NCBI GenBank assembly: GCA_964618885.1
Contig: CAZUFH010000002.1
Span: 1-30,700 of the forward strand
Length of the DNA stretch: 30,700 nt
Direction: 5' to 3'
Origin: an uncultured Pseudomonadales bacterium
GTDB lineage: Bacteria; Patescibacteriota; Microgenomatia; UBA1400; MFAQ01
Position numbers and translations under genes: made by a program. This document shows positions 16,927 to 30,700 of the stretch, one piece after another. The notes beneath the pieces were generated by a model. The model worked only from the letters and a program-made list of their open reading frames with translations, made no database searches and had not been told where the DNA came from. Within the stretch, counting starts at the first letter, position 1; each line of letters opens with the position of its first letter.

Positions 16927-17624
16927 TTTTTCTTGTCGCTAATTACTTGGCCATCAAGGACCCGGATTTGCCTCCTTGTTCTCTCAGCAATTTCCATTTC
17001 GTGTGTCACCATGACGATGGTGATACCTTCGGTCTTATTAAGTTCCTCAAACAAATCAATGATTTCATTCCCGGTTTTATGGTCAAGATTTCCTGTCGGT
17101 TCATCCGCCAGTATCAGCTGAGGTTTCATGATCAGTGCCCTAGCCACTGCCACTCGTTGCTGTTGGCCTCCTGAGATCCGATTTGGAAATGAATCTTTTT
17201 TTGAAAGAATACCAAACTTTTCCATGAGCATTTCCGCTCTCGCTTCCGCATCAAACTCCAGCTTGCGTCTAGAATAGGTAGCCGGCAACAATACATTTTC
17301 TTTGATTGTCAGTTTGTTTAATAAATTAAACTGCTGAAAAACAAATCCGACATAAGAATTCCTGAGTGTCGACGTCTGATTATCATCCAGTTTTGAAACG
17401 TTTTTTCCATTCACAATTATTTCTCCGCGACTTGGTTTGTCAAGTAGACCTATCATATGCATGAGAGTCGATTTGCCGGATCCCGAAGGTCCAATGATGG
17501 CCGAGAACTCACCCTCATGTATATCAAGATTTATATCCTTGAGAGCGACGAAGATTGAGCCATCTCCCAGAAGATACTCTTTATTGACTTCTTTAAGGCT
17601 GATTATAGATGACGTCGTTTTCAT
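16923..17624 (-). CDS. ABC transporter ATP-binding protein (LolD/MacB-like)
   Basis: GPSGSGKST, ISGGQQQRVAVARAL, ILADEPTGNLD, VTHE. Confidence 0.95.
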   Translation of the reverse strand: MKTTSSIISLKEVNKEYLLGDGSIFVALKDINLDIHEGEFSAIIGPSGSGKSTLMHMIGLLDKPSRGEIIVNGKNVSKLDDNQTSTLRNSYVGFVFQQFNLLNKLTIKENVLLPATYSRRKLEFDAEARAEMLMEKFGILSKKDSFPNRISGGQQQRVAVARALIMKPQLILADEPTGNLDHKTGNEIIDLFEELNKTEGITIVMVTHEMEIAERTRRQIRVLDGQVISDKKK

Positions 17625-18621
17625 TTAGCCCTTCCTTTATTTCTACCATCCCTTCAATAATCTCGCCTTGGCTTACCTCGACCGGTTTTAGCTGGCCATC
17701 CACCATCATCTCTACATAGTACTTGCCATTCTCTTTTTTGATGTAGGCTTCAGGTACTGCCAAGACATCTTTGTTTTCTTTCAAAGTGAAGTTCACGTCG
17801 CCGGTCATTCCCATTTTTATTCCTTCACCAAGTTCTTCTGGGTCAAAAAGAATCTTTATTTCATACACCGTTCCCGACTCTCCCGCTTTAGGTACGAAAC
17901 CAATTTTGTCCACCGTGGCCATAAGCTCTTTTTCGGGGAAAGAGTCCAGTATCACCTTGCCGGTCATTCCTTCTTCTAGGGAGGGGACCTCTGTTTGATC
18001 GGCTGTAGCCGAAAGAAACAAAGTCTTTGGATTGACAATGCTAAATACCGCACTCGCGGGGGTAATATTGGTACCAGGGACCGGGACATCGACTTTGGTC
18101 ACGATGCCTTCAAAGGGGGAGAAAATCGTAGCAAACTTCAGAGCCAGGTTCTTTGCCTCAAAGGCTAGCACGGCATTATTCAAGTCATACTGGTTCTTGT
18201 CCAAAGTTCTTTTGACAATGTCTCTGGCGGCGTCTGTCATCCCTCTTGTCTGCCAATCCTTATTGTCATCCACTCCTTGCTCAAAGTCCCACCTTTCTTT
18301 AAGATATGAGTTCATATATTGATTGAGACTATTAGTGAGCTCTCGCTTATCTAAGGAAGCTATGGCCTGGTATTTCTTGACGACATCGCCTTCCTTAACT
18401 CCCACCCAAGTCAGTAAACCCGAGGTTTGAAACTTGATGTCTGCCTTTTCCCAGGCATCGATTTCTCCGGAGAGGGACAGTTTCTCGGTTAGATCCTGTT
18501 TCTTTACTGTATACGTCTTAGACTTAAGTTCACTTGCCTGGACATTTTTCCAAATAACAAAACCACCACCGGCCAGCAAAACCAGCAAAATAATCCACCA
18601 AAAACGTTTAATCAGTCTCAC
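17593..18621 (-). CDS. efflux periplasmic adaptor subunit (MacA/HlyD-like)
   Basis: N-terminal TM, VKEGDVVKK lipoyl half, hairpin, IFSPFEGIV, GMTGDV, LAVPE; co-oriented with the ABC ATPase and permease. Confidence 0.9.
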   Translation of the reverse strand: MRLIKRFWWIILLVLLAGGGFVIWKNVQASELKSKTYTVKKQDLTEKLSLSGEIDAWEKADIKFQTSGLLTWVGVKEGDVVKKYQAIASLDKRELTNSLNQYMNSYLKERWDFEQGVDDNKDWQTRGMTDAARDIVKRTLDKNQYDLNNAVLAFEAKNLALKFATIFSPFEGIVTKVDVPVPGTNITPASAVFSIVNPKTLFLSATADQTEVPSLEEGMTGKVILDSFPEKELMATVDKIGFVPKAGESGTVYEIKILFDPEELGEGIKMGMTGDVNFTLKENKDVLAVPEAYIKKENGKYYVEMMVDGQLKPVEVSQGEIIEGMVEIKEGLNENDVIYNQP

Positions 18622-18740
18622 AGGTTCATTTTATACAATCAAAGATCCATTTGCCACTATTTATCATTCGTCCGAGATAAACATCTAAATTACTTTTAAT
18701 GTCAGGTGGCAAGCTTTGACAATTAGGATAAAATTCAACC

Positions 18741-19841
18741 ATGGCCCTAGAGAATCAAATAAATATCGTCGATCTCAAAAAGCGGATAAATGATATTGCC
18801 GAAAAGCTGGATCTGCCTTCACTTCGCCTGGAAATGAACCGGTTAACTTTGGAGTCCGGTGAGCCGGGCTTGTGGGCGGACGAAGATCATGCCAAAGCCG
18901 TCATGTCTGGCATGGCAGCTGCGAGAGATACCATTACTTCTACCGAAAAACTTCTCTCAGATGTTCAGTCTCTTGAGGAACTTCTCCAGATGTCAAAGTC
19001 TTCCGGAGACGATAGCTTGGACCAAGAAGTTAGGGTACTTTACGAAACCTTGTCCAAAAACGTCGAAAGAGTTGAGCTGGTAACTTTTTTGTCAGGGGAC
19101 TACGATGCTTCCGACGCCATCGTCACCATCAAAGCCGGGCAAGGCGGAACCGAAGCTATGGACTGGGCCGGTATGCTTAGCCGCATGTACACACGCTACT
19201 TTGAGAAACGCAGCTGGCCTTACGAAACTATCGAATATGCCCCCGGTGAGGAGACCGGCATCAAGTCGGTGACTTACTTGGTCCATGGTCGTTTTGCCTA
19301 TGGCTACCTCAAAAACGAAAAAGGGACTCACCGTCTTGTTCGCCTCTCACCCTTTAATGCCGACAAATTACGGCAAACTTCTTTTGCCGGTGTCGAGGTG
19401 ATGCCTCTGCTACCCGAAGAAGCAGAAATCGAGATCCGTGAAGAAGACCTAGAGTTTGAAGCGAGCCGAGCCAGTGGCGCTGGTGGCCAAAACGTGAACA
19501 AAGTCAGTACTGCCGTCCGAATTAAACATCTTCCCACTGGCATTGTGGTCGAGTGTCAGACCCAGAGATACCAAGATGCGAACCGCAAGATCGCTATGCA
19601 GGTTCTCAAGTCCAAGCTCTGGGAAATTAAAGAAGCCAAGCGCCAAGAAGAGCTCAGCCGGATCAAAGGCGGAGCTACTATTGCCAGTTGGGGTCATCAG
19701 ATCAGATCTTACGTTCTTCATCCTTATAAACTAGTTAAAGACCTACGGACCGAATACGAAGAAACCAATCCGGACTCCGTCTTGGACGGCAACTTGGATG
19801 GCTTTATCGAGTCTGAGCTAAAGTTTTTTACCTCGCCATAG
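18741..19841 (+). CDS. prfB: peptide chain release factor 2
   Basis: [18 protein letters not shown] (SPF motif), [10 protein letters not shown] (GGQ), [10 protein letters not shown]; uninterrupted ORF. Confidence 0.97.
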
Positions 19842-19879
19842 TCTTTCCAAAGGCGGGCTTCGCCTCCTAGAAATATCAC

Positions 19880-19902
19880 AAAAAACCCGCCATTGGCGGG
19901 TT
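19880..19902 (-). terminator. intrinsic terminator for the minus-strand Zn-ribbon gene
   Basis: AACCCGCC-ATT-GGCGGGTT hairpin (19884-19902) with an A-tract on its left (U-tract on the minus strand). Confidence 0.65.
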
Positions 19903-20329
19903 ACGTAGTCAGGCTAGCATAAATTGCTTCCAGTCTTTTATAGACATCCAAATATGTTTGCCGTTTGTCTTGGCTATCTTCCATGCAAATAGATCGAAAA
20001 TGGCCAATTAACATAAAAAGATCGAGGATATAGTCTCTGAATTGGTACTGGTGGTCCCTAAGAATCCTGAGGGATGCAATCAGGTCATCGACGTTATCCG
20101 GATAAAAGTCATCAAGGTCGGCAAACTTGTCAATATGATACTTCAAAAGAACAGCATCTTTTGCCGCATACTGGCTTCGTTTTGCACTTGGGAGTCGGCT
20201 TGGATCTTTTTCTAACGGTTCAAATTGAGATCCACAATATACGCACTCCTCGTCATTTAATCCAACTTGCGCTCCGCAAGCTTCGCAAACGACGGTTCTC
20301 CTTACTAGGACTTGCCTTTTGAGTGACAC
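19901..20329 (-). CDS. hypothetical protein with an N-terminal CxxC-x10-CxxC zinc ribbon
   Basis: CEACGAQVGLNDEECVYCG; AGGAGG RBS (20335-20340) 5 nt before GTG 20329. Confidence 0.7.
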   Translation of the reverse strand: MSLKRQVLVRRTVVCEACGAQVGLNDEECVYCGSQFEPLEKDPSRLPSAKRSQYAAKDAVLLKYHIDKFADLDDFYPDNVDDLIASLRILRDHQYQFRDYILDLFMLIGHFRSICMEDSQDKRQTYLDVYKRLEAIYASLTT

Positions 20330-20478
20330 AGTCACCTCCTTCTTCCCTGTAGGACATTATTAATTTACTCATTGATTATAGGCCATGGTCCTTTAATTGT
20401 CCACCCGGCCTTTCGCCACTGACTGTATCCTTGAGTTCTATGTATAACATTCTGCAATTAATTTGGTAAACTAGTTAC

Positions 20479-21018
20479 ATGGAAATAAAGACGATCGACC
20501 TAGACAAAGTAGATCCAAGTAAGGATTCATCCCGGGTGAGCTCCGTCCCCCCACTAGTAAATACCAATCAAAAAATGTCCAACAAATCAAGTATTGTGAC
20601 CGTTATTTTATTTTTAGTCACCGCTATTGCCGGTTTCTACTCTGGGGCCACTTTAAAGAACAGATTATCAGGTAAGCTGGCCGGAGGTATAGATGCCAAA
20701 AACATTCAGGCCGAAGTTCCGACCACTGGGGTGAAGATTGGCGATATCTATGGTTCGGCAGACGAGAAAGCTTTTCGGGATAGTGCAACTGGCGTTCTAG
20801 ATAAGGGAGGCCTAAATGGCGAAGGGACTCACAAAATCGTTCGTCCCGGGGGTGCTTCACAAACAGTCTATGTCACCAGTTCGGTAATAGATCTAGATAC
20901 TCTAGTAGGCCATCAGATTACAGCTTGGGGAGAGACCTTCAAAGGTCAGAAAGTCAGCTGGCTGATGGACATCGGCCGTGTCAAGGTCGAGAACTTAAAC
21001 ATGCCTTTACCTAAGTAA
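20479..21018 (+). CDS. membrane-anchored hypothetical protein
   Basis: Single TM (IVTVILFLVTAIAGFYSG) followed by a beta-rich domain; extended -10 TGGTAAACT 6 nt before ATG. Confidence 0.75.
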   Translation: MEIKTIDLDKVDPSKDSSRVSSVPPLVNTNQKMSNKSSIVTVILFLVTAIAGFYSGATLKNRLSGKLAGGIDAKNIQAEVPTTGVKIGDIYGSADEKAFRDSATGVLDKGGLNGEGTHKIVRPGGASQTVYVTSSVIDLDTLVGHQITAWGETFKGQKVSWLMDIGRVKVENLNMPLPK

Positions 21019-21045
21019 TGATGCTTCTTTACAATTACAAATTCG

Positions 21046-21132
21046 CGTCATTCCCGCGGAGGCGGGAATCCATCCAATTGGTACAAAATTAGGTATTTAT
21101 TTTATGGATTCCTGGTCAAGCCAGGAATGACG
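21046..21132. repeat. 87-bp composite palindromic element (MITE/REP-like) with 9-bp terminal inverted repeats
   Basis: CGTCATTCC...GGAATGACG termini. Left unit ATTCCC-N8-GGGAAT (21050-21069); right unit ATTCCTGG-TCAAG-CCAGGAAT; AT-rich spacer between them. Confidence 0.85.
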
Positions 21133-21167
21133 AGGGTTGTGAAATATTAAAAATTTAACTCGATAAA

Positions 21168-21992
21168 TTGATTGATTTTTCTCATGTCACCAAGGCATAT
21201 CCAAATGGTGACGTCGTTCTAGACGATGTAAACTTCTCCGTCTCACCCGGTGAATTTGTGATCATTACCGGAGCTTCCGGTGCCGGCAAAACGACTCTGG
21301 GCCGCCTCCTTATCCGCGACTTAATCCCTACCAAAGGCAAGATCGTTATCGATGGAGAAGATCTCTCCAAAATTAAGACCAAAAATATTCCTCTCATCCG
21401 TCGCAAAATTGGTTTTATTTTTCAAGATTACAAAATAATTCCAGATAAAACGGTGGGGGAAAACATCTCTCTTTCTCTGGAGATCGGTGGTTATACCTCC
21501 AAAAAAATTCCCGAAAAAATCTCGTCCCTACTTGAGCTAGTTGGGATTCCAAAAAAAGAGAATCTCTTTCCGGGGCAGCTTTCCGGTGGAGAAGTTCAGC
21601 GTGCAGCTATCGCCCGGGCCATCGCCTGCGACTCACCCATCCTTTTTGCCGATGAGCCGACCGGAAACCTAGACAAAGAAACTTCTATTGAAATCTTCAA
21701 TCTTCTCCAAAAAATTAACTCCGTCGGTACGACCGTCATTATGGCTACACACGACGTGACACTCATCGATCTTAGTTCTGCTCGACGTCTTCGGCTAGAA
21801 AAAGGTAAGATAATTTCAGACACCGAAAAAAAACCCACCAAATCTACTGAACAACCCGGTACAACTACTGTCATTCCTGCGAAGGCAGGAATCCATCAAG
21901 ATGATACTATAAAAACAAGACACAGCAATTCGTCATTGCGAGGAGCAAAGCGACGTGGCAATCTCACTCCATCAACCAAAAAATCTTCATGA
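21168..21992 (+). CDS. ftsE: cell division ATP-binding protein FtsE with a repeat-derived C-terminal extension
   Basis: GASGAGKTT, IGFIFQDYK, LSGGEVQRAAIARA, ADEPTGNLD, ATHD; directly upstream of ftsX; TTG start. Confidence 0.9.
   Translation: MIDFSHVTKAYPNGDVVLDDVNFSVSPGEFVIITGASGAGKTTLGRLLIRDLIPTKGKIVIDGEDLSKIKTKNIPLIRRKIGFIFQDYKIIPDKTVGENISLSLEIGGYTSKKIPEKISSLLELVGIPKKENLFPGQLSGGEVQRAAIARAIACDSPILFADEPTGNLDKETSIEIFNLLQKINSVGTTVIMATHDVTLIDLSSARRLRLEKGKIISDTEKKPTKSTEQPGTTTVIPAKAGIHQDDTIKTRHSNSSLRGAKRRGNLTPSTKKSS
21870..21895. repeat. palindromic repeat in frame in ftsE (encodes VIPAKAGIH)
   Basis: GTC-ATTCCTGC-GAAG-GCAGGAAT-CCA, perfect 8-bp stem. Confidence 0.8.
21931..21964. repeat. second palindromic repeat in frame in ftsE (encodes SLRGAKRRGNL)
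   Basis: CGTC-ATTGC-GAGGAGCAAAGCGACGTG-GCAAT-CT. Confidence 0.7.
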
Positions 21993-22894
21993 ACTCTGCC
22001 CTCAAAAACATTCGCCGCACTCCATTCCAAGCCCTCTCCGCTGTTTTTGTTGTTTCCATTACTCTCTACGTCGTGGGCATTTTTACTCTCGTTACCCTAG
22101 CTTCCCACTCCATTCTCTTAAACTTCGAAACCAAGCCCCAAATCATCGCCTATCTGAAGGATGGTCACACCACCGACCAGGTTGCTGGCCTCATCAGCAC
22201 TCTTACTTCCACCCAAGGAGTAAAAAATGCCAGCTATATTAGTAAGCAAGATGCCCTGGAACTTTACAAAAAAAGTGTCGGCAACGATCCCGTCTTACTT
22301 GGCACCGTCACCGACTGGGGTATTGTCACCGCCGACATTCTTCCTGCGAGTGTAGAGATCACTGCGAGCAACCCCAAGTCATTCCAAACCATCGCCTCTA
22401 TCTTGGAAAAATCCGAAGTAGTCAGTGAGACTCCGGCGGGCAAAAAAGAAATCGATTTTCCTCAGGATGTCATTTCCGAGCTTACCAAGTGGACCAACGC
22501 CATCCGCATGGCCGGCTTTCTCCTCATTATTGCCCTCACTATCGTATGTATCCTAACTATCATGATCATTATCTCTATGAAAATTTCTTCCCGGCGCATC
22601 GAGATTGGGACTTTGAAACTCCTGGGAGCCCAAAACTTTTACATCATCAAACCCTACATTACCGAGTCGGTTATTTACGGTTTGGTCGGGGCTCTCTTTG
22701 GCTGGGTGATGACTTACATCACTCTTCTCTATTCCACACCCTTCCTGGCACCTCGTCTCAGTGGAGTCATTCCCTTTCCCGTTCGTTTAGAAATAGTTTT
22801 GGGTCTTCTTCTCGCTCTCTTGGTTTTTGGTCTGGTTCTCTCATTTGTTTCCAGCCTCTTCGCTACCGCTAGGTTCGTCAAGAGGTCCAAATGA
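21989..22894 (+). CDS. ftsX: cell division permease FtsX
   Basis: Four-TM FtsX layout, YISKQDALELYK, RRIEIGTLKLLGAQNFYIIKPYITE; ATGA overlap with ftsE. Confidence 0.9.
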   Translation: MNSALKNIRRTPFQALSAVFVVSITLYVVGIFTLVTLASHSILLNFETKPQIIAYLKDGHTTDQVAGLISTLTSTQGVKNASYISKQDALELYKKSVGNDPVLLGTVTDWGIVTADILPASVEITASNPKSFQTIASILEKSEVVSETPAGKKEIDFPQDVISELTKWTNAIRMAGFLLIIALTIVCILTIMIIISMKISSRRIEIGTLKLLGAQNFYIIKPYITESVIYGLVGALFGWVMTYITLLYSTPFLAPRLSGVIPFPVRLEIVLGLLLALLVFGLVLSFVSSLFATARFVKRSK

Positions 22895-24030
22895 AAAAAA
22901 AATTTCTAGTTTTTACCATAACATTTCTTTTTCTATGGCAAAGTCCCATTAAAGCTGCAACAGAGTGTGATGGTACAGCCTCATCCATTGACGCCTGTAT
23001 TCAGATACTTGATACTCTTAACAAAGAAGAAACTTCTAGTAAGCAAGCTATAGCTGTTTATAATACGAAAATTAATCTGATTCAGGGACAGATAAATAAG
23101 ACAAATACCGAAATTGCAGCCTTAGAAAAGGAAATCATGGTTTTAGGAGGAGTTTTGGAAAACGTCAATAAATCAATGGATGATCTTACGGTCATTTATC
23201 TGGCGAGAGTCCGAGAAAGCTATCGCCGTTCCCGCGTCACCCCGATTGATATGATTTTTTCAACAGATTCCTTCGGCGATTTTCTGGAGAAGCTAAAGTA
23301 TTTAAACACCGTCAAAGCCAAAGATCAGCTCATACTTACAGAGCTGGAGAAATCTAGACAAGACTATGACCAAAGAAAAAATGAAAAAGTAAATAAGCAG
23401 CAGGAAGTGGAAAAACTAAAAGAAAGGTTAGAAGTACAAAAAAAGTCACAAAATCAACTACTAAAAGAAAAAAAAGCAATGCTCCTTGATACTCAAAATA
23501 ATGAAAAAAAGTACAAACAACTATTAGATCAAGCACTTGCAGAAAAGGCCGCTATCGAAAAGGCATTGGTTTCAGGTGTCAAAGTTGGTCCCATTAAAAA
23601 AGGTGATCCGATTGCTCTTACGGGAAATTCGGGATATCCAGGTTGTTCTACTGGCAAACACCTTCACTTCGAAATCAGAAAAGATGGAAAGTGGGTGGAT
23701 CCCAGCCCATATCTTTCTTCAAAAACAGTTAAAGATGAACAAGATAATCGAGGAGATGTAAATATTGGTTCTGGCAATTGGTCGTGGCCACTTAGTGATA
23801 CTATAAGGCTAACTCAGTTATTTGGTCATACTCCATATTCATGGAGATACAAATATTCCGGTGGAATTCACACTGGTTTCGACATGGTTTCGTCCTCTGG
23901 CGATGTCATCTACGCCCCGGCCGACGGAACACTATTCAAATCATCTCAGTCATGTGGTTCAAGTACAATCAATATTGTCTATATCGAACATCCAGATAAC
24001 CTTGTCAGTCTCTATCTGCACGTACAATAA
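22891..24030 (+). CDS. FtsEX-associated coiled-coil peptidoglycan hydrolase with a circularly permuted M23 domain
   Basis: Signal peptide, PcsB/EnvC-like coiled coil (TDSFGDFLEKLKYL); HLH precedes WP...HTGFD...APADG...YLHV. Confidence 0.85.
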   Translation: MKKKFLVFTITFLFLWQSPIKAATECDGTASSIDACIQILDTLNKEETSSKQAIAVYNTKINLIQGQINKTNTEIAALEKEIMVLGGVLENVNKSMDDLTVIYLARVRESYRRSRVTPIDMIFSTDSFGDFLEKLKYLNTVKAKDQLILTELEKSRQDYDQRKNEKVNKQQEVEKLKERLEVQKKSQNQLLKEKKAMLLDTQNNEKKYKQLLDQALAEKAAIEKALVSGVKVGPIKKGDPIALTGNSGYPGCSTGKHLHFEIRKDGKWVDPSPYLSSKTVKDEQDNRGDVNIGSGNWSWPLSDTIRLTQLFGHTPYSWRYKYSGGIHTGFDMVSSSGDVIYAPADGTLFKSSQSCGSSTINIVYIEHPDNLVSLYLHVQ

Positions 24031-24119
24031 CACGAATATACCTTACTTATTGGGCAAAGACACCTTCTTCCTCCACGTCAACTACTATTAAATTTATCGT
24101 CCCTCCACCAAAATTTTCC

Positions 24120-24150
24120 AAAAAATAACCCTGTCTTTTGACGGGGCTAT
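24120..24150 (-). terminator. hairpin with A-tract; terminator for a minus-strand transcript
   Basis: ATAACCCTGTC-TTTT-GACGGGGCTAT (10 of 11 pairs including G-U) preceded by AAAAAA. Confidence 0.55.
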
Positions 24151-24265
24151 AGCTAACTTAAGAAGTGAGCTCTCCAGTGGAGGGAACCTTTCTCAGATTG
24201 CGTTTTACTCTGAAAACGGGTACTCCCGCTCTCGATTACTCGATGGCTTTTTGTGTGCTTGTCTC

Positions 24266-24299
24266 TGGTATACTTTGTCCATCCTGTACTTTAAGGAGG
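24266..24299 (+). promoter_or_regulatory. extended -10 promoter plus RBS of cassette 1
   Basis: TGGTATACT (24266-24274) and AGGAGG (24294-24299). Confidence 0.65.
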
Positions 24300-24306
24300 T
24301 AAAATT

Positions 24307-24660
24307 TTGTCTCAATGCTGCGGAAAAATTCCGACTATTGATGATGTAGATAGGATCATAATTTCCGTTTTTCTAGGTCTGCTTGACCAGGTGGTATCAG
24401 AGCCGGATCTTTCAATTAGTGACAGCACGGATCCCTTCAAAGATCCAATTCAGACTATTAAAAATAGTCATGAATGGATAACTACAAAGGGAAATCTGAT
24501 CAAGGTGTTCGAGAGTGCCAACGGGCAAATTAATTACGAAATTTTTAGCGGCCCGGACAGAGGGGTACATCGGTTTATCGATCCAAATACCGGAAGAGAG
24601 GGTCAGACAGGAGTAGAGAATCCGAGAACCGGTGAGCGGCGCCACGAAAGTAAAAAGTAA
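24307..24660 (+). CDS. small CC-KIPT-leader protein 1 (putative toxin/effector)
   Basis: TTG start 7 nt after AGGAGG; MSQCCGKIPTIDDV leader; beta-rich His-containing C-terminus. Confidence 0.7.
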   Translation: MSQCCGKIPTIDDVDRIIISVFLGLLDQVVSEPDLSISDSTDPFKDPIQTIKNSHEWITTKGNLIKVFESANGQINYEIFSGPDRGVHRFIDPNTGREGQTGVENPRTGERRHESKK

Positions 24661-24702
24661 GTTCTGGGTGTTAAAATTAATCATATTTTAACACCCATTT
24701 TT

Positions 24703-25140
24703 ATGTCATTTCCAATTCCAAAAATAATTCCAATCAAATGTGATTTAGACAATTCCGAATATGTCATGATGATTCGTTATTTGTTGGACTTTATAAATTC
24801 TGAGTTAGAAAAAATCGATTCAATAAATACAATCTCTGTGGATCAGATAAATGAAGCCGGTAGTGCTTGTCAAACAATTTTACTTTCAAAATTCGACAAA
24901 GAGTGTGTTTTTTTGGATTCTGACAAATATTCCGAGAAATTTATCGGAACATATGCTCAGGAAACTTCAGACCTATTCAAGACCTTACAAGACATCTGTC
25001 AACTTTCATGGAGCTTTGATGCTTATCCGACCTTGGAACTTATCGATTTTGGAGTGAGGCAAGATGATGCTCAAAACTTCTACTCTTATCTAAAGTATCA
25101 GTCTGGAATTTTGTCCAATATTCTCAATCAAATATCCTAA
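24703..25140 (+). CDS. hypothetical acidic helical protein (putative immunity partner of 24307-24660)
   Basis: 145-aa ATG ORF immediately downstream and before a terminator. Confidence 0.7.
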   Translation: MSFPIPKIIPIKCDLDNSEYVMMIRYLLDFINSELEKIDSINTISVDQINEAGSACQTILLSKFDKECVFLDSDKYSEKFIGTYAQETSDLFKTLQDICQLSWSFDAYPTLELIDFGVRQDDAQNFYSYLKYQSGILSNILNQIS

Positions 25141-25148
25141 TTTTTCCC

Positions 25149-25179
25149 AAAAAATAGCCACCCCAGGGGGTGGCTTTTT
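25149..25179. terminator. bidirectional intrinsic terminator
   Basis: AGCCACCC-CAGG-GGGTGGCT perfect 8-bp stem (25156-25175), flanked by an A6 tract on the left and a T tract on the right. Confidence 0.8.
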
Positions 25180-25426
25180 CGTTCTACCTCTAGAAGTAGA
25201 ACTCGAGCTATGCTCGGGCTCGGTGTAGTAACGAGCACTAGTTGCTAATATGCAGCCCCTCAGGAGGGTTAACTTTTTCTCGTTTCCCGGCACACTTCTT
25301 GGCCTGGAGAAAAAGCGCATACTGCAACCCAAAGGCAAATTTTAAAGTGAGAGTTGATTTGGTTTTCGGCAGACTTGCCGAGCCTCTTCACCGATAAAAT
25401 CTCTCACTCCCTACCCGCCCTTAACT
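25150..25426 (-). ncRNA. candidate ~275-nt structured non-coding RNA
   Basis: Consensus promoter at one end, intrinsic terminator at the other, six or more hairpins between, no convincing ORF; ends estimated. Confidence 0.6.
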
Positions 25427-25432
25427 ATGAGT

Positions 25433-25461
25433 ATTATAAGCCATAAGCCCACTCGTGTCAA
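25433..25461 (-). promoter_or_regulatory. perfect consensus sigma70 promoter overlapping the helicase stop codon
   Basis: Minus strand TTGACA (25461-25456), CGAGTGGGCTTATGGCT (17 nt), TATAAT (25438-25433). Confidence 0.85.
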
Positions 25462-28043
25462 GACCTTTGAATCACCGATTTTAGCCTCAGGCCTATCTTT
25501 ATCTTGCCTTGGTCCTCCCTAAGGCTCAGGATCCAAACCTCAACTGTGTCCCCTACACTGAGCAGATCGCTGACTTTCTTCACGTTTCTTCCCATATTGG
25601 TGATATGAATCAGACCCGTTCCTCCCCGAGGAAGCTTTACAAAGGCGCCAAAATCGGCAAGAGAGGCCACTTTTGCCTCCAAAACTTGTCCGACGGAATA
25701 TGCTTTGATCGTTTTTGCTCTTTCCTCGCTCTCAAGCAGTTCGATTGCGTCTTCCAGCGAGATTTGGGAGTTTGCAAATAGACGAGCCTTGATATCATCA
25801 TCAGCTTCGTTAGGGTCAATGTCCATCAGATCTCTGGCAAGAGAAAATAGTGTTTTGGTGTTATCTAGGTTTTCATCCACTACTTTTTTCATTTTTTCCG
25901 GAATCTTCAATTGATATGTGGCACTTGCACCGACGGCAGTTTGAAGATTGGTCTTGTAGGCATACACTGCTTCCGGAACCACTCCGAACGGCACACAATA
26001 AGCCAGGATCACCCGAGTTCTATTCACCAATTTAAAATTGATTTCGCGAGTGTTCCTATCATGTTTGTGACCGTTTAAGAGCCGCAGAATCTGAGATCGT
26101 TCCGTTTCAATGTCCTTGAAGATTTCATGATTTATGTAGAATTCTTTGGCCCACTTCTCACCACGCTCGGACCATAAGCTGTAAAGCTTGAGGATAAACT
26201 CCACATCATCCTTACAGTTTTTCCACAAAATCTGATGGGCGGTATTGGCTTTTTGTTGCTCCTTTTTGTCCCACTCATCATTTCTTGCCAAGAGACGCTT
26301 ATGTCCTCCGTTTTTTATTACCGGCAACAATGTCGCTACTTCCACAGCGCAGCCAAATCTGTCCGACATAACAATTAGATCTGTGAGTGCGGCAGTGTAG
26401 GCAAATTCCCTCAGTATAGAGCCGTATTCGGTAAGCATGTCGTCTTCGTCAATAGCTCCGCTCTTGTGGAGTGAGGCCATTGACCTGGTCAGCTCCGTGC
26501 TATCGGGTCCATCGATCCACCCATTATCAATGTCATCCACTCCGAGTTTCTTCAGGAGAAGGATAATATCTTCCATTGATGATCGCTGTATCGCGGGGAT
26601 GGGATAGTCCCGCATGGATTTAAACTGCGCTTCGGTATAAAGGCAGTACACTTCGCCAGGAGCTGTCCTTCCTGAGCGGCCCCAGCGTTGTTTTGCATTT
26701 GCCTGACTAATTAGGGTGAGTCCGACTTTTGTTTCCAAGGTGTCTGACTTCCAGTTCGCCTGGTTTTCTACACCGCTTTCCACTACATATACAATCCCGT
26801 CTACCGTCACCGAAGCTTCGGCTACGTTGGTGCTTACAATGACTCGAATTTTTCCTGACCCGGATCCCTTTAGGGCTAGGTCCTTCTTCTTTATGTCCAG
26901 GTCGCTATATAGAGGGTATACCTCCACTTTATCTTTCAGTATCGGGCTAGAAGTAATTGCTTTATTCAGCTCAATCACTGCTTCCTCAATCGGCTTTACT
27001 CCCTGAAGAAAAGCCAGAATATTTCCTTTTGTCTTCCCCTTGATCTGTTCATTCAAAAGCCAGACTACCTTTTTCACCAGCGCCGGTACTAGCTTGTTCC
27101 GTAGCTGACGAGGATCATCATAAGGCAATTTTTCTTCTTCTTTGGCAAAGAATCTTTTATACTCAAATTTTCTCTTTGCCTCAAACTCAATCACTTTGGC
27201 CGTGTCCTCTCCGAAGTACTTCAAGAATGACTCTCTATTGATAGTCGCGCTTACAATAAGCACCTTGAGGTGAGGGTAAAGTGGAAGTTGATCTTTCAAG
27301 AGCCGAAGTATGATATCGATGTTTTCTGACCGCTCATGAGCTTCGTCAATCATGATTACGCCAAGGTCAGCCAGCTGGCCTTTCATAATCATGTTTATTA
27401 AACTTCCGTCAGTCGCAAGAAAAGCTGCGTTGAAGCGATCATTATTTCGATCTTTACTGTAGCGGTAGCCAATATCAAAGCCCTTACCCACCGATGACCC
27501 TAGTAATACTCCCATGTACTCTGCTATAGAAGTGGTTGCTACGATTCTTGGTTGGGTAATTAGGATCTGTCCGTCACGGATAAAGAAATCCTTGGGCACT
27601 CCTTCCGGCGGATAAATTAGCCAGTAGGGGAGCGCGGTGGATTTCCCTGAACCAGTCTCGCCAATGATAATGGCCACTTGGTGGTTTTTATCTTTTAGCC
27701 ACTTATAAACGTCCACAATCTTATCCGGGGTGGCGCCAAATTTGGAGGCATCAAAGGTTGATGGTTTTTCTACCTTCACATGCGGCCTTTGAGGATGGTA
27801 AACCATCCCCAATTCACCCGGGATCGCAATCGTCAAGTCTTCGCCTGGCAAAGTTCGCACCGAGAAATACGCGGCACCCATTGTCATTTTTTCCAAGAGA
27901 AGGGCTTTGCGACAGTCCTCACAATACTCAGGTCGGGACTGGCCGTACTCTTTCATCTTTTCATACATCATTCCGGAATAGCCAATTTCTACTGCATTAC
28001 ACCGTTTGCACATCACTTTGAACTCGGTTGTCGTTTTTGGCAT
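25458..28043 (-). CDS. DEAH/RHA-family (HrpA-like) SF2 helicase with an N-terminal Zn ribbon and a C-terminal S1 RNA-binding domain
   Basis: GETGSGKST, TQPR, TDG, IDEAHERS, SAT, STNVAEASVT, QRWGRSGR; N-terminal CKRC...PEYCEDCR; C-terminal S1 VGQVLEAKVASLADFGAFVKLPRGGTGLIHIT. ATG 28043 is preferred for AAGGAG spacing. Confidence 0.9.
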   Translation of the reverse strand: MPKTTTEFKVMCKRCNAVEIGYSGMMYEKMKEYGQSRPEYCEDCRKALLLEKMTMGAAYFSVRTLPGEDLTIAIPGELGMVYHPQRPHVKVEKPSTFDASKFGATPDKIVDVYKWLKDKNHQVAIIIGETGSGKSTALPYWLIYPPEGVPKDFFIRDGQILITQPRIVATTSIAEYMGVLLGSSVGKGFDIGYRYSKDRNNDRFNAAFLATDGSLINMIMKGQLADLGVIMIDEAHERSENIDIILRLLKDQLPLYPHLKVLIVSATINRESFLKYFGEDTAKVIEFEAKRKFEYKRFFAKEEEKLPYDDPRQLRNKLVPALVKKVVWLLNEQIKGKTKGNILAFLQGVKPIEEAVIELNKAITSSPILKDKVEVYPLYSDLDIKKKDLALKGSGSGKIRVIVSTNVAEASVTVDGIVYVVESGVENQANWKSDTLETKVGLTLISQANAKQRWGRSGRTAPGEVYCLYTEAQFKSMRDYPIPAIQRSSMEDIILLLKKLGVDDIDNGWIDGPDSTELTRSMASLHKSGAIDEDDMLTEYGSILREFAYTAALTDLIVMSDRFGCAVEVATLLPVIKNGGHKRLLARNDEWDKKEQQKANTAHQILWKNCKDDVEFILKLYSLWSERGEKWAKEFYINHEIFKDIETERSQILRLLNGHKHDRNTREINFKLVNRTRVILAYCVPFGVVPEAVYAYKTNLQTAVGASATYQLKIPEKMKKVVDENLDNTKTLFSLARDLMDIDPNEADDDIKARLFANSQISLEDAIELLESEERAKTIKAYSVGQVLEAKVASLADFGAFVKLPRGGTGLIHITNMGRNVKKVSDLLSVGDTVEVWILSLREDQGKIKIGLRLKSVIQRS

Positions 28044-28106
28044 GCGCATCTCCTTTAGTTTTCAAAGTTCACTCACGATTCTACGCTCATACTCCCAAAA
28101 GTGAAA

Positions 28107-28140
28107 TGGTACAATTTACTAAATTCGCACTTTAAGGAGG
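28107..28140 (+). promoter_or_regulatory. extended -10 promoter plus RBS of cassette 2
   Basis: TGGTACAAT (28107-28115) and AGGAGG (28135-28140); same spacing as cassette 1. Confidence 0.65.
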
Positions 28141-28145
28141 TTTTT

Positions 28146-28535
28146 GTGGCTCAGGCATGTTGCAAAATTCCCACGGTCGAAGACGTTGTGGCAATACGAG
28201 AGTCTATTCTGAGATATCAGGAAGAGCAGGCTGAAGCCGATGCTATTAGAGAATATATCAAGAAGCAGGCAGGGGAAGCTGTAAATTCCGGCAGTGCTTC
28301 TTCCGGCCAGACTATAGTATCGGATGACGGAAAGGTCAAAAACATTTCTCCGTATAATCCGGGAGACGTAATTCAAGTCGAAACCTTTAACAAAGACGGC
28401 AGTATTCACTACACCACAGTTAATACCGCCACCAATCAACGCCACTCATATACAGTCACTAGCGAAGGAAGGGTAGTAAAGGACCATTCAACAAATCAGA
28501 ACCTCTCAAAAGGGAGCAAAAATAGGCATAAGTAG
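28146..28535 (+). CDS. small CC-KIPT-leader protein 2 (putative toxin/effector)
   Basis: GTG start 5 nt after AGGAGG; MAQACCKIPTVEDV leader; His-rich beta C-terminus (IHY...RHSY...DHST). Confidence 0.72.
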   Translation: MAQACCKIPTVEDVVAIRESILRYQEEQAEADAIREYIKKQAGEAVNSGSASSGQTIVSDDGKVKNISPYNPGDVIQVETFNKDGSIHYTTVNTATNQRHSYTVTSEGRVVKDHSTNQNLSKGSKNRHK

Positions 28536-28581
28536 AGCGAGTAATCATAGACTAAGGTGTAAAATAGCCTTAGTCTTTTTT

Positions 28582-28983
28582 ATGCATAAAAATATTACAT
28601 ATCCCTCCGGGAAAAAAACTATTGAGATATCATTTGATCCAAAAGAAATTGATCAATATCTTTGTCTTTATGGTCCTGTGCAAATCACAACATCTGAGTA
28701 CGCAAAGTATATTTTTTTGTGCGCAACAGACGATTATCTAAAAAAGAAAATCGACGCGACTCTATTGTCCGGAATAGCCAATCGAATCCTCTATGTAGAT
28801 GGATTCCATAATTCTCTAGATTTTGGCAGCGACCTCAACTTCATGCTGGACGATACCGCTGAGCTTGAGTACAACCTCGCAATAAATGACCAGGAGACAG
28901 TCGAAAAATATCTGGGCGAACTTAAAGATTACTTTTCTAAGAATAAAAAGCTAATCAAACCACAAAAAACCGAGGGTGAATAA
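28582..28983 (+). CDS. hypothetical helical protein (putative immunity partner of 28146-28535)
   Basis: 133-aa ATG ORF directly downstream. Confidence 0.7.
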   Translation: MHKNITYPSGKKTIEISFDPKEIDQYLCLYGPVQITTSEYAKYIFLCATDDYLKKKIDATLLSGIANRILYVDGFHNSLDFGSDLNFMLDDTAELEYNLAINDQETVEKYLGELKDYFSKNKKLIKPQKTEGE

Positions 28984-28995
28984 ATCACTCTCGGT
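28964..28995 (-). terminator. intrinsic terminator ending the minus-strand operon at the right edge
   Basis: ACCGAGGGTGA-ATAAA-TCACTCTCGGT 11-bp stem with an A6 tract on the left. Confidence 0.7.
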
Positions 28996-29004
28996 AGTCA
29001 TAGC

Positions 29005-30153
29005 TTAGATCCAGATCTTCCCCTTTTCATAGTGGCCAAAGAAATAGTAGGGGATTACTTCCAGGGTGGGAGCTGATTTTCCCTTTTTCAGAAGTGTTTC
29101 GGTGAGAGCCCGATAAAACCCCACCACCGCCGGCTGAAAACCGGTTTGATAATAGGCAATTCGGAATATTCCTTCTTTCCGCAGGCGGGCAAAGATTTCC
29201 TTCGCTTTCTGATATGCGATCTCATCTATTTCTCCGGCTGTTTTGCCGGTAGAAATCTCCTGGTTCCGAAAGAAGTAAATATTTATCTTCTCATCCATCT
29301 CTTGATGCCTTCCACTCATCTGACCTACATTTAAGACAGGTCCGGGCAAAACAACGGGCTGATCTATTTTGGGTAGTTTCAAGCAATGAATGGGGAATGG
29401 ACTTGCTTTTGAACCATCATCGTAAGTCACAGGCAGGTACATTGGTGTTCCTGAACCATATACAAACTCATGTAGAGTTTCTGTAATCGTGTTGTGTGGC
29501 AGGTCACTAAAGTTTACGGACGTCGGAATCTTTTTCTTCTGGTCTGCAATTACTTGATATATCTGATTTCGTAAAGTTGAAAGTGAGCTGATATCTCGAG
29601 CCGAAGTTATGTTGTCGCTCATCGGGATAGATAAAAACTTGTCTTTCAATCCCGGTTCGACCGTTATCTCACCGGCTTCTTCGCCGGTAGTCATCTCTTG
29701 TATTTCCAAAATATGACATTTTTTCTTTGCGGCCGAGCGGTAGAATTTACTCTTCTTGCCGATTTCCACCCGGCTGATTATTCCCGCTCGCATCGCCAGA
29801 TCTTCAAATAGGCCAATTTGTTTTTCTACCATCTCGGCAGGGCAAAAATTAGCCATAATTCGACCTGTCTTGTAATCATCCGGATTTTTCTTTTGCATGA
29901 GAAGCAGCAGTTCCAGATAATCCTCTCCGAGGTCAATCGACTCAAATTTTTTGGAAGAAGTCATCAAGTTACCCAGGTACTCCATACGATCACAGAGAAT
30001 CTGGTAGCGCCGTTGTTCGTCCTCCAGGTTCACCCCCTTCTTCATTCTTTCTTCTATTTTTAGGGCTCTGTTCATCAATACCCGGAGATCCAATCGTTCG
30101 AGAACACATTCTGTTTCGGGAATGGCTATCAAAATTACATGAGTGATCATCAT
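29005..30153 (-). CDS. uncharacterised 382-aa protein with a C-terminal alpha/beta domain
   Basis: Long ORF, AAGGAGG RBS (30162-30168), ATGA overlap with the upstream gene; C-terminal SGRH and YYQTGFQPAVVGFYRAL segments. Confidence 0.8.
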   Translation of the reverse strand: MMITHVILIAIPETECVLERLDLRVLMNRALKIEERMKKGVNLEDEQRRYQILCDRMEYLGNLMTSSKKFESIDLGEDYLELLLLMQKKNPDDYKTGRIMANFCPAEMVEKQIGLFEDLAMRAGIISRVEIGKKSKFYRSAAKKKCHILEIQEMTTGEEAGEITVEPGLKDKFLSIPMSDNITSARDISSLSTLRNQIYQVIADQKKKIPTSVNFSDLPHNTITETLHEFVYGSGTPMYLPVTYDDGSKASPFPIHCLKLPKIDQPVVLPGPVLNVGQMSGRHQEMDEKINIYFFRNQEISTGKTAGEIDEIAYQKAKEIFARLRKEGIFRIAYYQTGFQPAVVGFYRALTETLLKKGKSAPTLEVIPYYFFGHYEKGKIWI

Positions 30154-30698
30154 TGACGTGTCCTCCTTCCGGTTTCCAGGCGTCGAATCGCTTCTTTGGT
30201 GAGACTAGCCATATTATCCGGAGATATCATTAGAAATACTCCCTCTTTTTTCAATTGACCAAGAATTTGTGATTGAGCAGTCAGGGGGACATCTTCAAAA
30301 TCCCTCGGAAGTAGATAGAAGATTATAGTTTTTGAGTCTTTTTGGTATTTGGACACCAAGCTTTTTAGGCTTGCCAAATCTTTCGGAAAATGTCTTTGGA
30401 TCTCACTGTCGGATCTGGCCCGTACCATTACTACCATTTTTTGTTCGGAAGACAAAACTTTATTTTTGTCCAGCCAGGGGACGATCAGGTCTGTTTCTGA
30501 GCTGTAAACCTTAGCAAAAAATACAGCATCAAAGCCGATGGTAATTGGAGATTCTTCATCCTCGGACTCTACGATCTGTCCGCCCTCGACGAGCTCTGTC
30601 CTCAGTAGTTTTCGGTCTAGAACCCCACCCAGAACAGAGTTACTCGCTACCACCAGGTCATTGAGATAAAGGTGTCTCTCGTCCGGTTCCGAAGTAGA
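30150..30698 (-). CDS. uncharacterised protein, 5' part outside the window
   Basis: Frame is open to the window edge (...STSEPDERHLYLNDLVVASN...); translationally coupled to the 382-aa gene. Confidence 0.75.
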   Translation of the reverse strand, partial: STSEPDERHLYLNDLVVASNSVLGGVLDRKLLRTELVEGGQIVESEDEESPITIGFDAVFFAKVYSSETDLIVPWLDKNKVLSSEQKMVVMVRARSDSEIQRHFPKDLASLKSLVSKYQKDSKTIIFYLLPRDFEDVPLTAQSQILGQLKKEGVFLMISPDNMASLTKEAIRRLETGRRTRQ

Positions 30699-30700
30699 TT

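Follow-up and report, generated by a model that had tools for sequence, protein, structure and literature searches.

The locus considered here raises the question of whether a peptidase domain encoded with its two halves in reverse order is a genuine member of a well-known family, and what such a domain would do beside ftsEX. It lies in a window of 30,700 nucleotides, the whole stretch of DNA analysed, which covers positions 1 to 30,700 of contig CAZUFH010000002.1 (GenBank assembly GCA_964618885.1) from an uncultured bacterium deposited as Pseudomonadales and placed by GTDB in the Patescibacteriota (Microgenomatia; UBA1400; MFAQ01). The gene in question follows ftsE and ftsX and encodes a protein of 379 amino acids. 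M23/LytM domains are among the best-studied modules of cell-wall hydrolases and their regulators, with lysostaphin, LytM, EnvC, NlpD and SpoIIQ as examples. Their motifs canonically run WP, HxxxD, YxHL, VxxG, HxH and DP, and in EnvC the zinc ligands are degenerate. The 379-residue protein is arranged in another way: a signal peptide and a long coiled coil are followed by the C-half of an M23 domain (with HxH), a hairpin linker of 16 amino acids, the N-half (with WP, HxxxD and YxH) and the stop codon. The swap of the halves is real, and it is best explained as a true circular permutation of an M23/LytM zinc-peptidase domain, passed on by descent and carried by a secreted, FtsEX-adjacent coiled-coil protein.

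The evidence for the permutation is found in the sequence itself. The C-half reads VKVGPIKKGD...GNSG...C..GKHLHFE...VDPSPYL and is followed by the short linker, while the C-terminus reads WSWP...HTGFD...IEH...YLHVQ before a TAA stop ending at 24030. A sequence-only reading of the window had quoted this peptide order and placed the HxH and HxxxD motifs at the positions listed in the table below, and both are exact by sequence and codon arithmetic. The Pfam M23 profile (PF01551) scores 60.9 bits against a cut-off of 28.7 (E 1.4e-16), a value reached as the sum of two pieces. These are complementary and reversed: residues 234-271 correspond to profile positions 61-96, whereas positions 2-55 are matched only further along the chain, by residues ~326-379, so that the collinear order of N-half then C-half expected of family M23 is absent. 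The same inversion is observed against the PDB chain 9gy1 (StM23), whose residues 39-91 match residues 324-378 of the query and whose residues 102-142 match 235-277. The metal ligands of the family (HxxxD and the second His of HxH) are all present, as are the catalytic His of YxH and the first His of HxH.

Joining residues 222-379 to a second copy of themselves is the standard test for such a rotation. Aligned with a canonical M23 domain of the same genome (L001, residues 267-382), the doubled sequence yields one unbroken alignment running across the junction between C-terminus and N-terminus (36% identity, E 5e-16), whereas a single copy yields two pieces (E 8.5e-9 and 4.3e-7). This junction falls in the short YxH-VxxG loop, which is where the sequence-only reading had put the swap, at the YxHL/VxxG boundary. 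No M23 half was found before the coiled coil, nor in any frame after the stop of the 379-residue open reading frame (ORF). Because profile positions 61-96 precede positions 2-55 and the doubled-domain test reveals a rotation, the domain is, as judged from its sequence, a permuted M23 variant rather than a standard family member. Likewise, residues, score and half-fold identify it as a predicted M23-family domain, and context and stalk identify the protein as a putative FtsEX partner.

Structure prediction gives a consistent picture. The AlphaFold2 (AF2) model of the domain alone (residues 222-379) has a mean predicted local distance difference test (pLDDT) score of 88.6 and a predicted template modelling (pTM) score of 0.86. 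An independent prediction of the same shape is available in the ESM Atlas, where a model of relatives superposes on the domain model with a TM-score of 0.94 and a root-mean-square deviation of 1.4 Å over 157 residues; the corresponding cluster comprises 63 proteins, the commonest named phylum being Woeseibacteriota, and Pfam M23 is found in 98% of its members. VIA-align retrieves M23/LytM domains as the best matches of the domain model, on the N-half. A Foldseek search of the PDB with the same model (residues 222-379) returned no M23 match, its best hits being noise. Such a miss is the expected effect of a permutation on an order-dependent aligner and is not evidence against the fold. The model indicates that the two halves form one compact domain, and their packing together is suggested by Cys252 of the C-half and Cys355 of the N-half, which are kept or lost together.

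The full-length model (pLDDT 86.4) reveals how this domain would be mounted. Its best Foldseek matches in the PDB are EnvC chains of FtsEX complexes (8tzl_E, E 2e-4, and 6tpi_A), followed by RipA/RipC and PcsB (6ewy, 8idc_E, 4cgk_A). Helices 50-114 and 128-228 form a long coiled coil like those bound by the FtsX extracellular domain. The second helix runs straight, without any linker, into the β-domain, which starts at residue 230 with the VxxG-side strand 230-235, and the chain ends two residues past the catalytic His. The anticipated change in the attachment point of the coiled coil is thus borne out by the model. In EnvC, the chain end lies at the far, WP end of the LytM domain, whereas in the model of the permuted protein both termini of the domain are located at the active-site loop.

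The swapped M23 order is conserved across many ultrasmall bacteria of the candidate phyla radiation (CPR). A set of 120 listed homologues (45-79% identity, 350-405 amino acids), drawn from NCBI, JGI, ENA and Logan assemblies and including some contigs of 200-700 kb, exhibits HxH ~70 residues before HxGxD in all 120, and 119 of them end in (L/M)HV(Q/R/N). Judging by source names, the close homologues come from Collierbacteria and Microgenomates, and Gottesmanbacteria, Pacebacteria and Parcubacteria also contain relatives. When 1.84 billion representatives were searched exhaustively, using only the domain as query, 202 matched at E ≤ 1e-10. Classification with half-domain hidden Markov models (HMMs) assigned the permuted layout to 84 of the best 150 representatives at 50% identity. 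The survey of the permutation's distribution that the sequence-only reading had called for therefore finds it to be widespread, and its statement that all zinc ligands are kept extends to the whole active-site set: the frequencies among the 84 representatives are given in the table, and H327, D331, H257, H259 and H377 are invariant in 81 close homologues. The position of the C-terminus is also constrained, as 49 of the 84 end exactly 2 residues after the catalytic His and 75 within 2-4. Among 401 sampled genomes of the phylum, at least ~40 matches from many families are collinear over the full domain length, a lower bound since 64 further matches lie outside those listed and short-linker relatives match by their N-half only. 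An unpublished genome (G154) is among the half-matches tallied in this sample and bears no claim. No NCBIfam model exists for the permuted family.

The cysteines provide a further signature. Cys252 lies five residues before HxH and, like Cys355, is invariant in close homologues. Among the 84 representatives, both are present in 56 (and in 4 more with the second Cys shifted in the alignment) and neither in 23, with no true singles; this count is taken over related rows and is not a formal statistic. The simplest reading is a probable disulfide across the halves. A second pair, Cys26 and Cys36 (22966-22968 and 22996-22998), occurs as C-x9-C right after the signal peptide, and may form a disulfide at the stalk tip. 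Similar Cys residues are present at the start of the mature partner proteins of two related genomes, G245 and G393.

Permuted domains also occur in other settings. They are found outside the FtsEX-partner architecture in P0214 (894 amino acids), P0148 (1256) and P0204 (2174): in P0214 the domain follows an Exo_endo_phos (endonuclease/exonuclease/phosphatase) domain, and elsewhere it lies near the C-terminus of very large proteins. A short-linker permuted subfamily comprises L027:544-1677 (-) of genome G067 together with P0197, P0234, P0262, P0225, P0255 and P0271. Its members have an HxH-to-HxxxD spacing of ~50 residues, end in ...LYGHL(I/L), and branch either basally to the main permuted clade or separately from it. 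The G067 gene is not next to ftsX, its neighbours being an aldehyde dehydrogenase and a histidine kinase. This group may represent an early branch or a second permutation event.

Features of the permuted-M23 protein and of its locus (window coordinates)
Feature	Coordinates	Strand	Basis or remark
Predicted Sec signal peptide, aa 1-23 (KKK / hydrophobic core / IKA-A)	22891..22959	+	Sequence inspection, no predictor; helix 2-16 in model
Coiled-coil stalk, aa 30-228, presumed FtsX-binding part	22978..23574	+	DSSP helices 30-45, 50-114, 118-124 and 128-228 of model
M23 C-half, placed first, aa 229-278 (VxxG strand, GNSG...C252..H257-L-H259, DPxxYL)	23575..23724	+	Pfam and PDB-chain alignments, doubled-domain test
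Linker joining old C- and N-termini, aa 279-294, conserved	23725..23772	+	Modelled β-hairpin, strands 278-282 and 288-292
M23 N-half, placed last, aa 295-379 (W-x-WP, H327-T-G-F-D331, C355, IEH367, YLH377-VQ)	23773..24027	+	
HxH motif, H257 and H259 (HLH)	23659..23667	+	Kept in 84/84 permuted representatives
HxxxD motif, H327 and D331 (HTGFD)	23869..23883	+	Kept in 84/84 permuted representatives
Catalytic His377 of YxH, two residues before C-terminus	24019..24021	+	Kept in 81/84 permuted representatives
Cys252, C-half, partner of Cys355	23644..23646	+	
Cys355, N-half, partner of Cys252	23953..23955	+	Probable disulfide across halves
Small membrane protein gene, 179 aa	20479..21018	+	Upstream of ftsE; homologous ORFs before ftsE in G245 and G393
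ftsE, ABC ATPase, 274 aa, ~55-aa C-terminal extension	21168..21992	+	Pfam PF00005 (ABC_tran) E 3.7e-34; ATGA overlap with ftsX
ftsX, 301 aa, extracellular and permease domains	21989..22894	+	PF18075 (FtsX_ECD) E 8.2e-13; PF02687 (FtsX) E 3.9e-12
Coiled-coil, permuted-M23 protein gene, 379 aa and stop	22891..24030	+	ATGA: start overlaps ftsX stop by 4 nt

The genomic context links the protein to FtsEX. The three genes ftsE, ftsX and the 379-residue ORF are joined by ATGA overlaps and have the adjacency and co-orientation expected of FtsEX-coupled coiled-coil hydrolase partners. Three divergent relatives (loci L014-L019) have the same succession of ftsE, ftsX and a permuted M23 gene, and in two of them prfB and a small unannotated gene lie just upstream. 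The unannotated gene before ftsE in L014-L019 encodes 150-196 amino acids and is a possible counterpart of the 179-residue gene of the window. Within the 3' extension of ftsE, a stretch of ~45 nucleotides (21929-21975) recurs with 82-100% identity at 9 or more other sites in G245. It is thus a short repeat of the dispersed kind, one that now lies within the C-terminal tail of FtsE, and the FtsE tail of G245 differs. The source genome also harbors three normal-order M23 genes (contigs C26, C77 and C71; L001-L003) and four Peptidase_C39_2 genes (contigs C6, C44, C20 and C119; L020-L022).

Comparison with close relatives shows that the catalytic module of the FtsEX partner is exchanged within one genus. 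G245 (same genus) and G393 (same family) share the synteny of small membrane protein, ftsE, ftsX and partner, and their FtsX proteins are 82% and 69% identical, respectively, to that of the window. The partner genes at the syntenic site (L006:2403-3620 (+) in G245 and L007:296-1501 (-) in G393) encode a Peptidase_C39_2 domain, a C39-like, papain-like cysteine peptidase, in place of the permuted M23. The stalk of these partners is homologous (56% identity over residues 35-224 for G245), and the alignment ends at the domain junction. At the DNA level, G245 matches the window collinearly over 17000-23371 and again over 26181-30700; positions 23371-26181 in between are replaced and form the sole stretch of 17000-30700 without a G245 match. 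This stretch begins in the hydrolase gene, whose 3' part it includes, spans small genes at 24307-25140 and takes in the 3' end of a helicase gene. Since the helicase itself (from 26181) is syntenic with G245, the downstream region is not a simple inserted island.

How the permuted order may have arisen is illustrated by tandem M23-M23 proteins. About 25 of the best 150 representatives are of this kind, each with two full Pfam M23 domains, and the permuted query is collinear with the stretch that joins their first C-half, linker and second N-half. The HxH-to-HxxxD spacing is 69 residues in the tandem protein P0173 and 70 in the 379-residue protein, and this equal spacing fits a duplication followed by trimming. 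The most likely origin would therefore be a tandem duplication that lost its first N-half and last C-half, consistent with the 'duplicated-then-trimmed' route that had been offered as an option. Tandem proteins are common among the nearest non-permuted relatives: P0173, P0177, P0190, P0199 and P0202 are 300-345 amino acids long, while P0175, P0178 and P0182 are longer, P0182 being composed of a BlaR1-type M56 domain, two M23 domains and an Amidase_3 domain. P0173, P0177, P0190, P0202 and the P0175 cluster (named member P0272, Oscillospiraceae) share the C1-linker-N2 stretch and the spacing but keep both complete domains, and those checked have neither a Pfam coiled coil nor an FtsX domain. A single origin of the main permuted family is well supported by phylogeny. 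The N-half is contiguous in both forms, and a tree built from it alone is free of artificial junctions. In this tree 74 of the 84 permuted rows fall into one clade with a Shimodaira–Hasegawa-like approximate likelihood ratio test (SH-aLRT) value of 95, and the label changes only twice. The tree units were set by motif anchors, as the half-domain HMMs of the permuted family are too specific for all N-halves of tandem proteins. Normal-order counterparts in the same role were sought in P0267 (the nearest canonical-order relative in the tree), in P0263 and in the canonical M23 of G282: none of these is next to ftsX.

Among the closest known systems is EnvC (E. coli, V. cholerae, P. aeruginosa; PDB IDs 6tpi, 8tzl, 8hd0, 8i6o), which shares the FtsEX link and a long coiled-coil stalk followed by a LytM/M23 domain, the fold being predicted in the 379-residue protein. 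The LytM domain of EnvC is in normal order and has lost its metal ligands, and EnvC activates Amidase_3 enzymes, whereas the domain of the 379-residue protein is permuted, keeps its ligands and is encoded in a genome where no Amidase_3 was found. PcsB (CHAP), CwlO and RipC (NlpC/P60) of monoderms (PDB IDs 4cgk, 8idc) share the plan of a coiled-coil stalk with a hydrolase module, which is catalytically competent and FtsEX-gated in those systems. Their catalytic module is a cysteine peptidase, while the present one is a zinc M23 domain by sequence. Canonical M23 domains (LytM, lysostaphin, StM23, ShyA, Csd3; PDB IDs 1qwy, 4lxc, 9gy1, 6ue4, 4rny) possess the same motifs, WxWP/P, HxxxD, YxH and HxH, with 24-36% identity per half, but here the halves are rotated, the chain ends lie at the YxH/VxxG loop and a hairpin connects the former termini.

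Permutation has precedents outside M23. One is provided by circularly permuted NlpC/P60 families (YaeF/poxvirus G6R, LRAT-like; Anantharaman and Aravind 2003, as cited in PMC6403190). These illustrate a peptidoglycan-hydrolase superfamily whose catalytic residues are swapped by permutation, although fold and chemistry differ (papain-like Cys/His). Another near precedent is the permutation among distant hybrid-motif (HABAS) domains. Literature searches on permutation with M23, LytM and FtsEX, and on FtsEX/FtsX in Patescibacteria/CPR, retrieved no description of a permuted M23.

As to function, the permuted-M23 protein is most likely an active peptidoglycan endopeptidase. Several features favor this over an EnvC-like activator: conserved catalytic residues, a secretory N-terminus, an FtsX-type stalk, translational coupling to ftsX, a recurrent gene order and the rarity of Amidase_3, which was found in just 9 of the 61 genomes examined from the class and is missing from 8 of 9 sampled carriers of the permuted form. 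Some observations weigh against the overall account. The stalk scores 25.6 bits with the Pfam CC_PcsB profile (PF24568), just under the cut-off of 27. The lack of a detected Amidase_3 in the own genome is weak evidence, as the genome is 78% complete. Some of the tandem proteins belong to other phyla (e.g. Oscillospiraceae) and their linkers have no demonstrable homology, so that the tandem proteins illustrate a route and are not proven ancestors. Finally, a tree of re-ordered units places the 84 permuted domains on one side of a single branch with one label change, but its SH-aLRT value is low (24).

The alternatives have to be weighed against this background. An active hydrolase that is merely co-expressed with ftsX and not governed by FtsEX would fit the short-linker relative of G067, which lies away from ftsX, and the presence of permuted domains in unrelated architectures (P0214, P0148, P0204). 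This is nonetheless unlikely in view of the 4-nucleotide overlap with ftsX, the gene order kept in divergent relatives, the resemblance of the stalk to those of FtsX-bound EnvC, RipC and PcsB, and the sister genome that keeps the stalk at the same locus while its catalytic module differs. It is quite unlikely that the domain is permuted but non-catalytic, its LytM groove activating another hydrolase as in EnvC. LytM domains are often regulators, and EnvC ranks first both in the full-length structural comparison and among NCBIfam models (NF008644, E 3.4e-11). Regulators of the EnvC type lack metal ligands, however, whereas all five active-site residues are kept here in 81-84 of the 84 representative clusters, and an Amidase_3 target was found neither in the available genome nor in most of those sampled from the class. 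Assignment to EnvC sensu stricto was rejected on the same grounds, the NF008644 score being 42.7 bits against a cut-off of 270.

Two further readings concern the integrity of the domain. The halves might pair between two protomers in a domain-swapped dimer, or the N-half alone might be a binding module: PcsB-type partners are known to form dimers, and the N-half is the only part that superposed on solved M23 domains. The compact monomeric domain predicted by AF2, the agreement of the ESM Atlas model and a conserved hairpin linker as long as that between the domains of tandem M23 proteins make this very unlikely. The Cys252-Cys355 pair, spanning the halves, fits intrachain as well as between-protomer pairing. 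A permutation could be mimicked by a misassembly, a frameshift or a tandem M23-M23 gene that has been collapsed, the last named beforehand by the sequence-only reading as a possible refutation, since tandem genes exist naturally and the source assembly is fragmented (134 contigs). The chance of such an artefact is close to nil: the layout is shared by all listed homologues and the C-terminus by all but one, across four assembly sources and several contigs above 200 kb, the frame is open without stops and no additional M23 half flanks it. Conservation across independent assemblies thus refutes this candidate explanation.

With a genuine permuted endopeptidase as the preferred reading, a mechanism can be proposed. 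The coiled coil would be gripped by the extracellular domain of FtsX, and ATP hydrolysis by FtsE would move FtsX, releasing the hydrolase from an inhibited state at the septum. The protein would work like PcsB, CwlO and RipC, and not as an amidase activator like EnvC. According to the model, the stalk helix would enter the permuted domain beside the active site, and the loop that separates the catalytic His from the VxxG strand would be the meeting point of both chain ends. It is conceivable, if rather doubtful, that the permutation is adaptive and not neutral, with the end of the stalk helix and the C-terminus brought together at the active-site loop so that movement of the coiled coil would gate the enzyme mechanically. 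ATP-driven movement could then pull directly on the catalytic strand, switching the enzyme on or off. On this view the catalytic module could be exchanged as well, a point suggested by the C39-like replacement within the genus. If true, this mode of mechanical gating would be distinct from the restraining arm of EnvC and from the occlusion of PcsB.

The conserved natural permutation implies that the M23 fold tolerates new chain ends right beside its active site. It also explains why the family is under-annotated by standard tools, its Pfam hits being split and, among those precomputed for the contigs, often weak or faint, and Foldseek being blind to the domain. For the FtsEX field, the permuted M23 represents a natural experiment on how force is transmitted from FtsEX to a hydrolase. 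Finally, it bears on division in the CPR/Patescibacteria: as most sampled genomes of the class have no Amidase_3 match, division in these bacteria seems to depend on FtsEX paired directly with a hydrolase whose catalytic module can be swapped.
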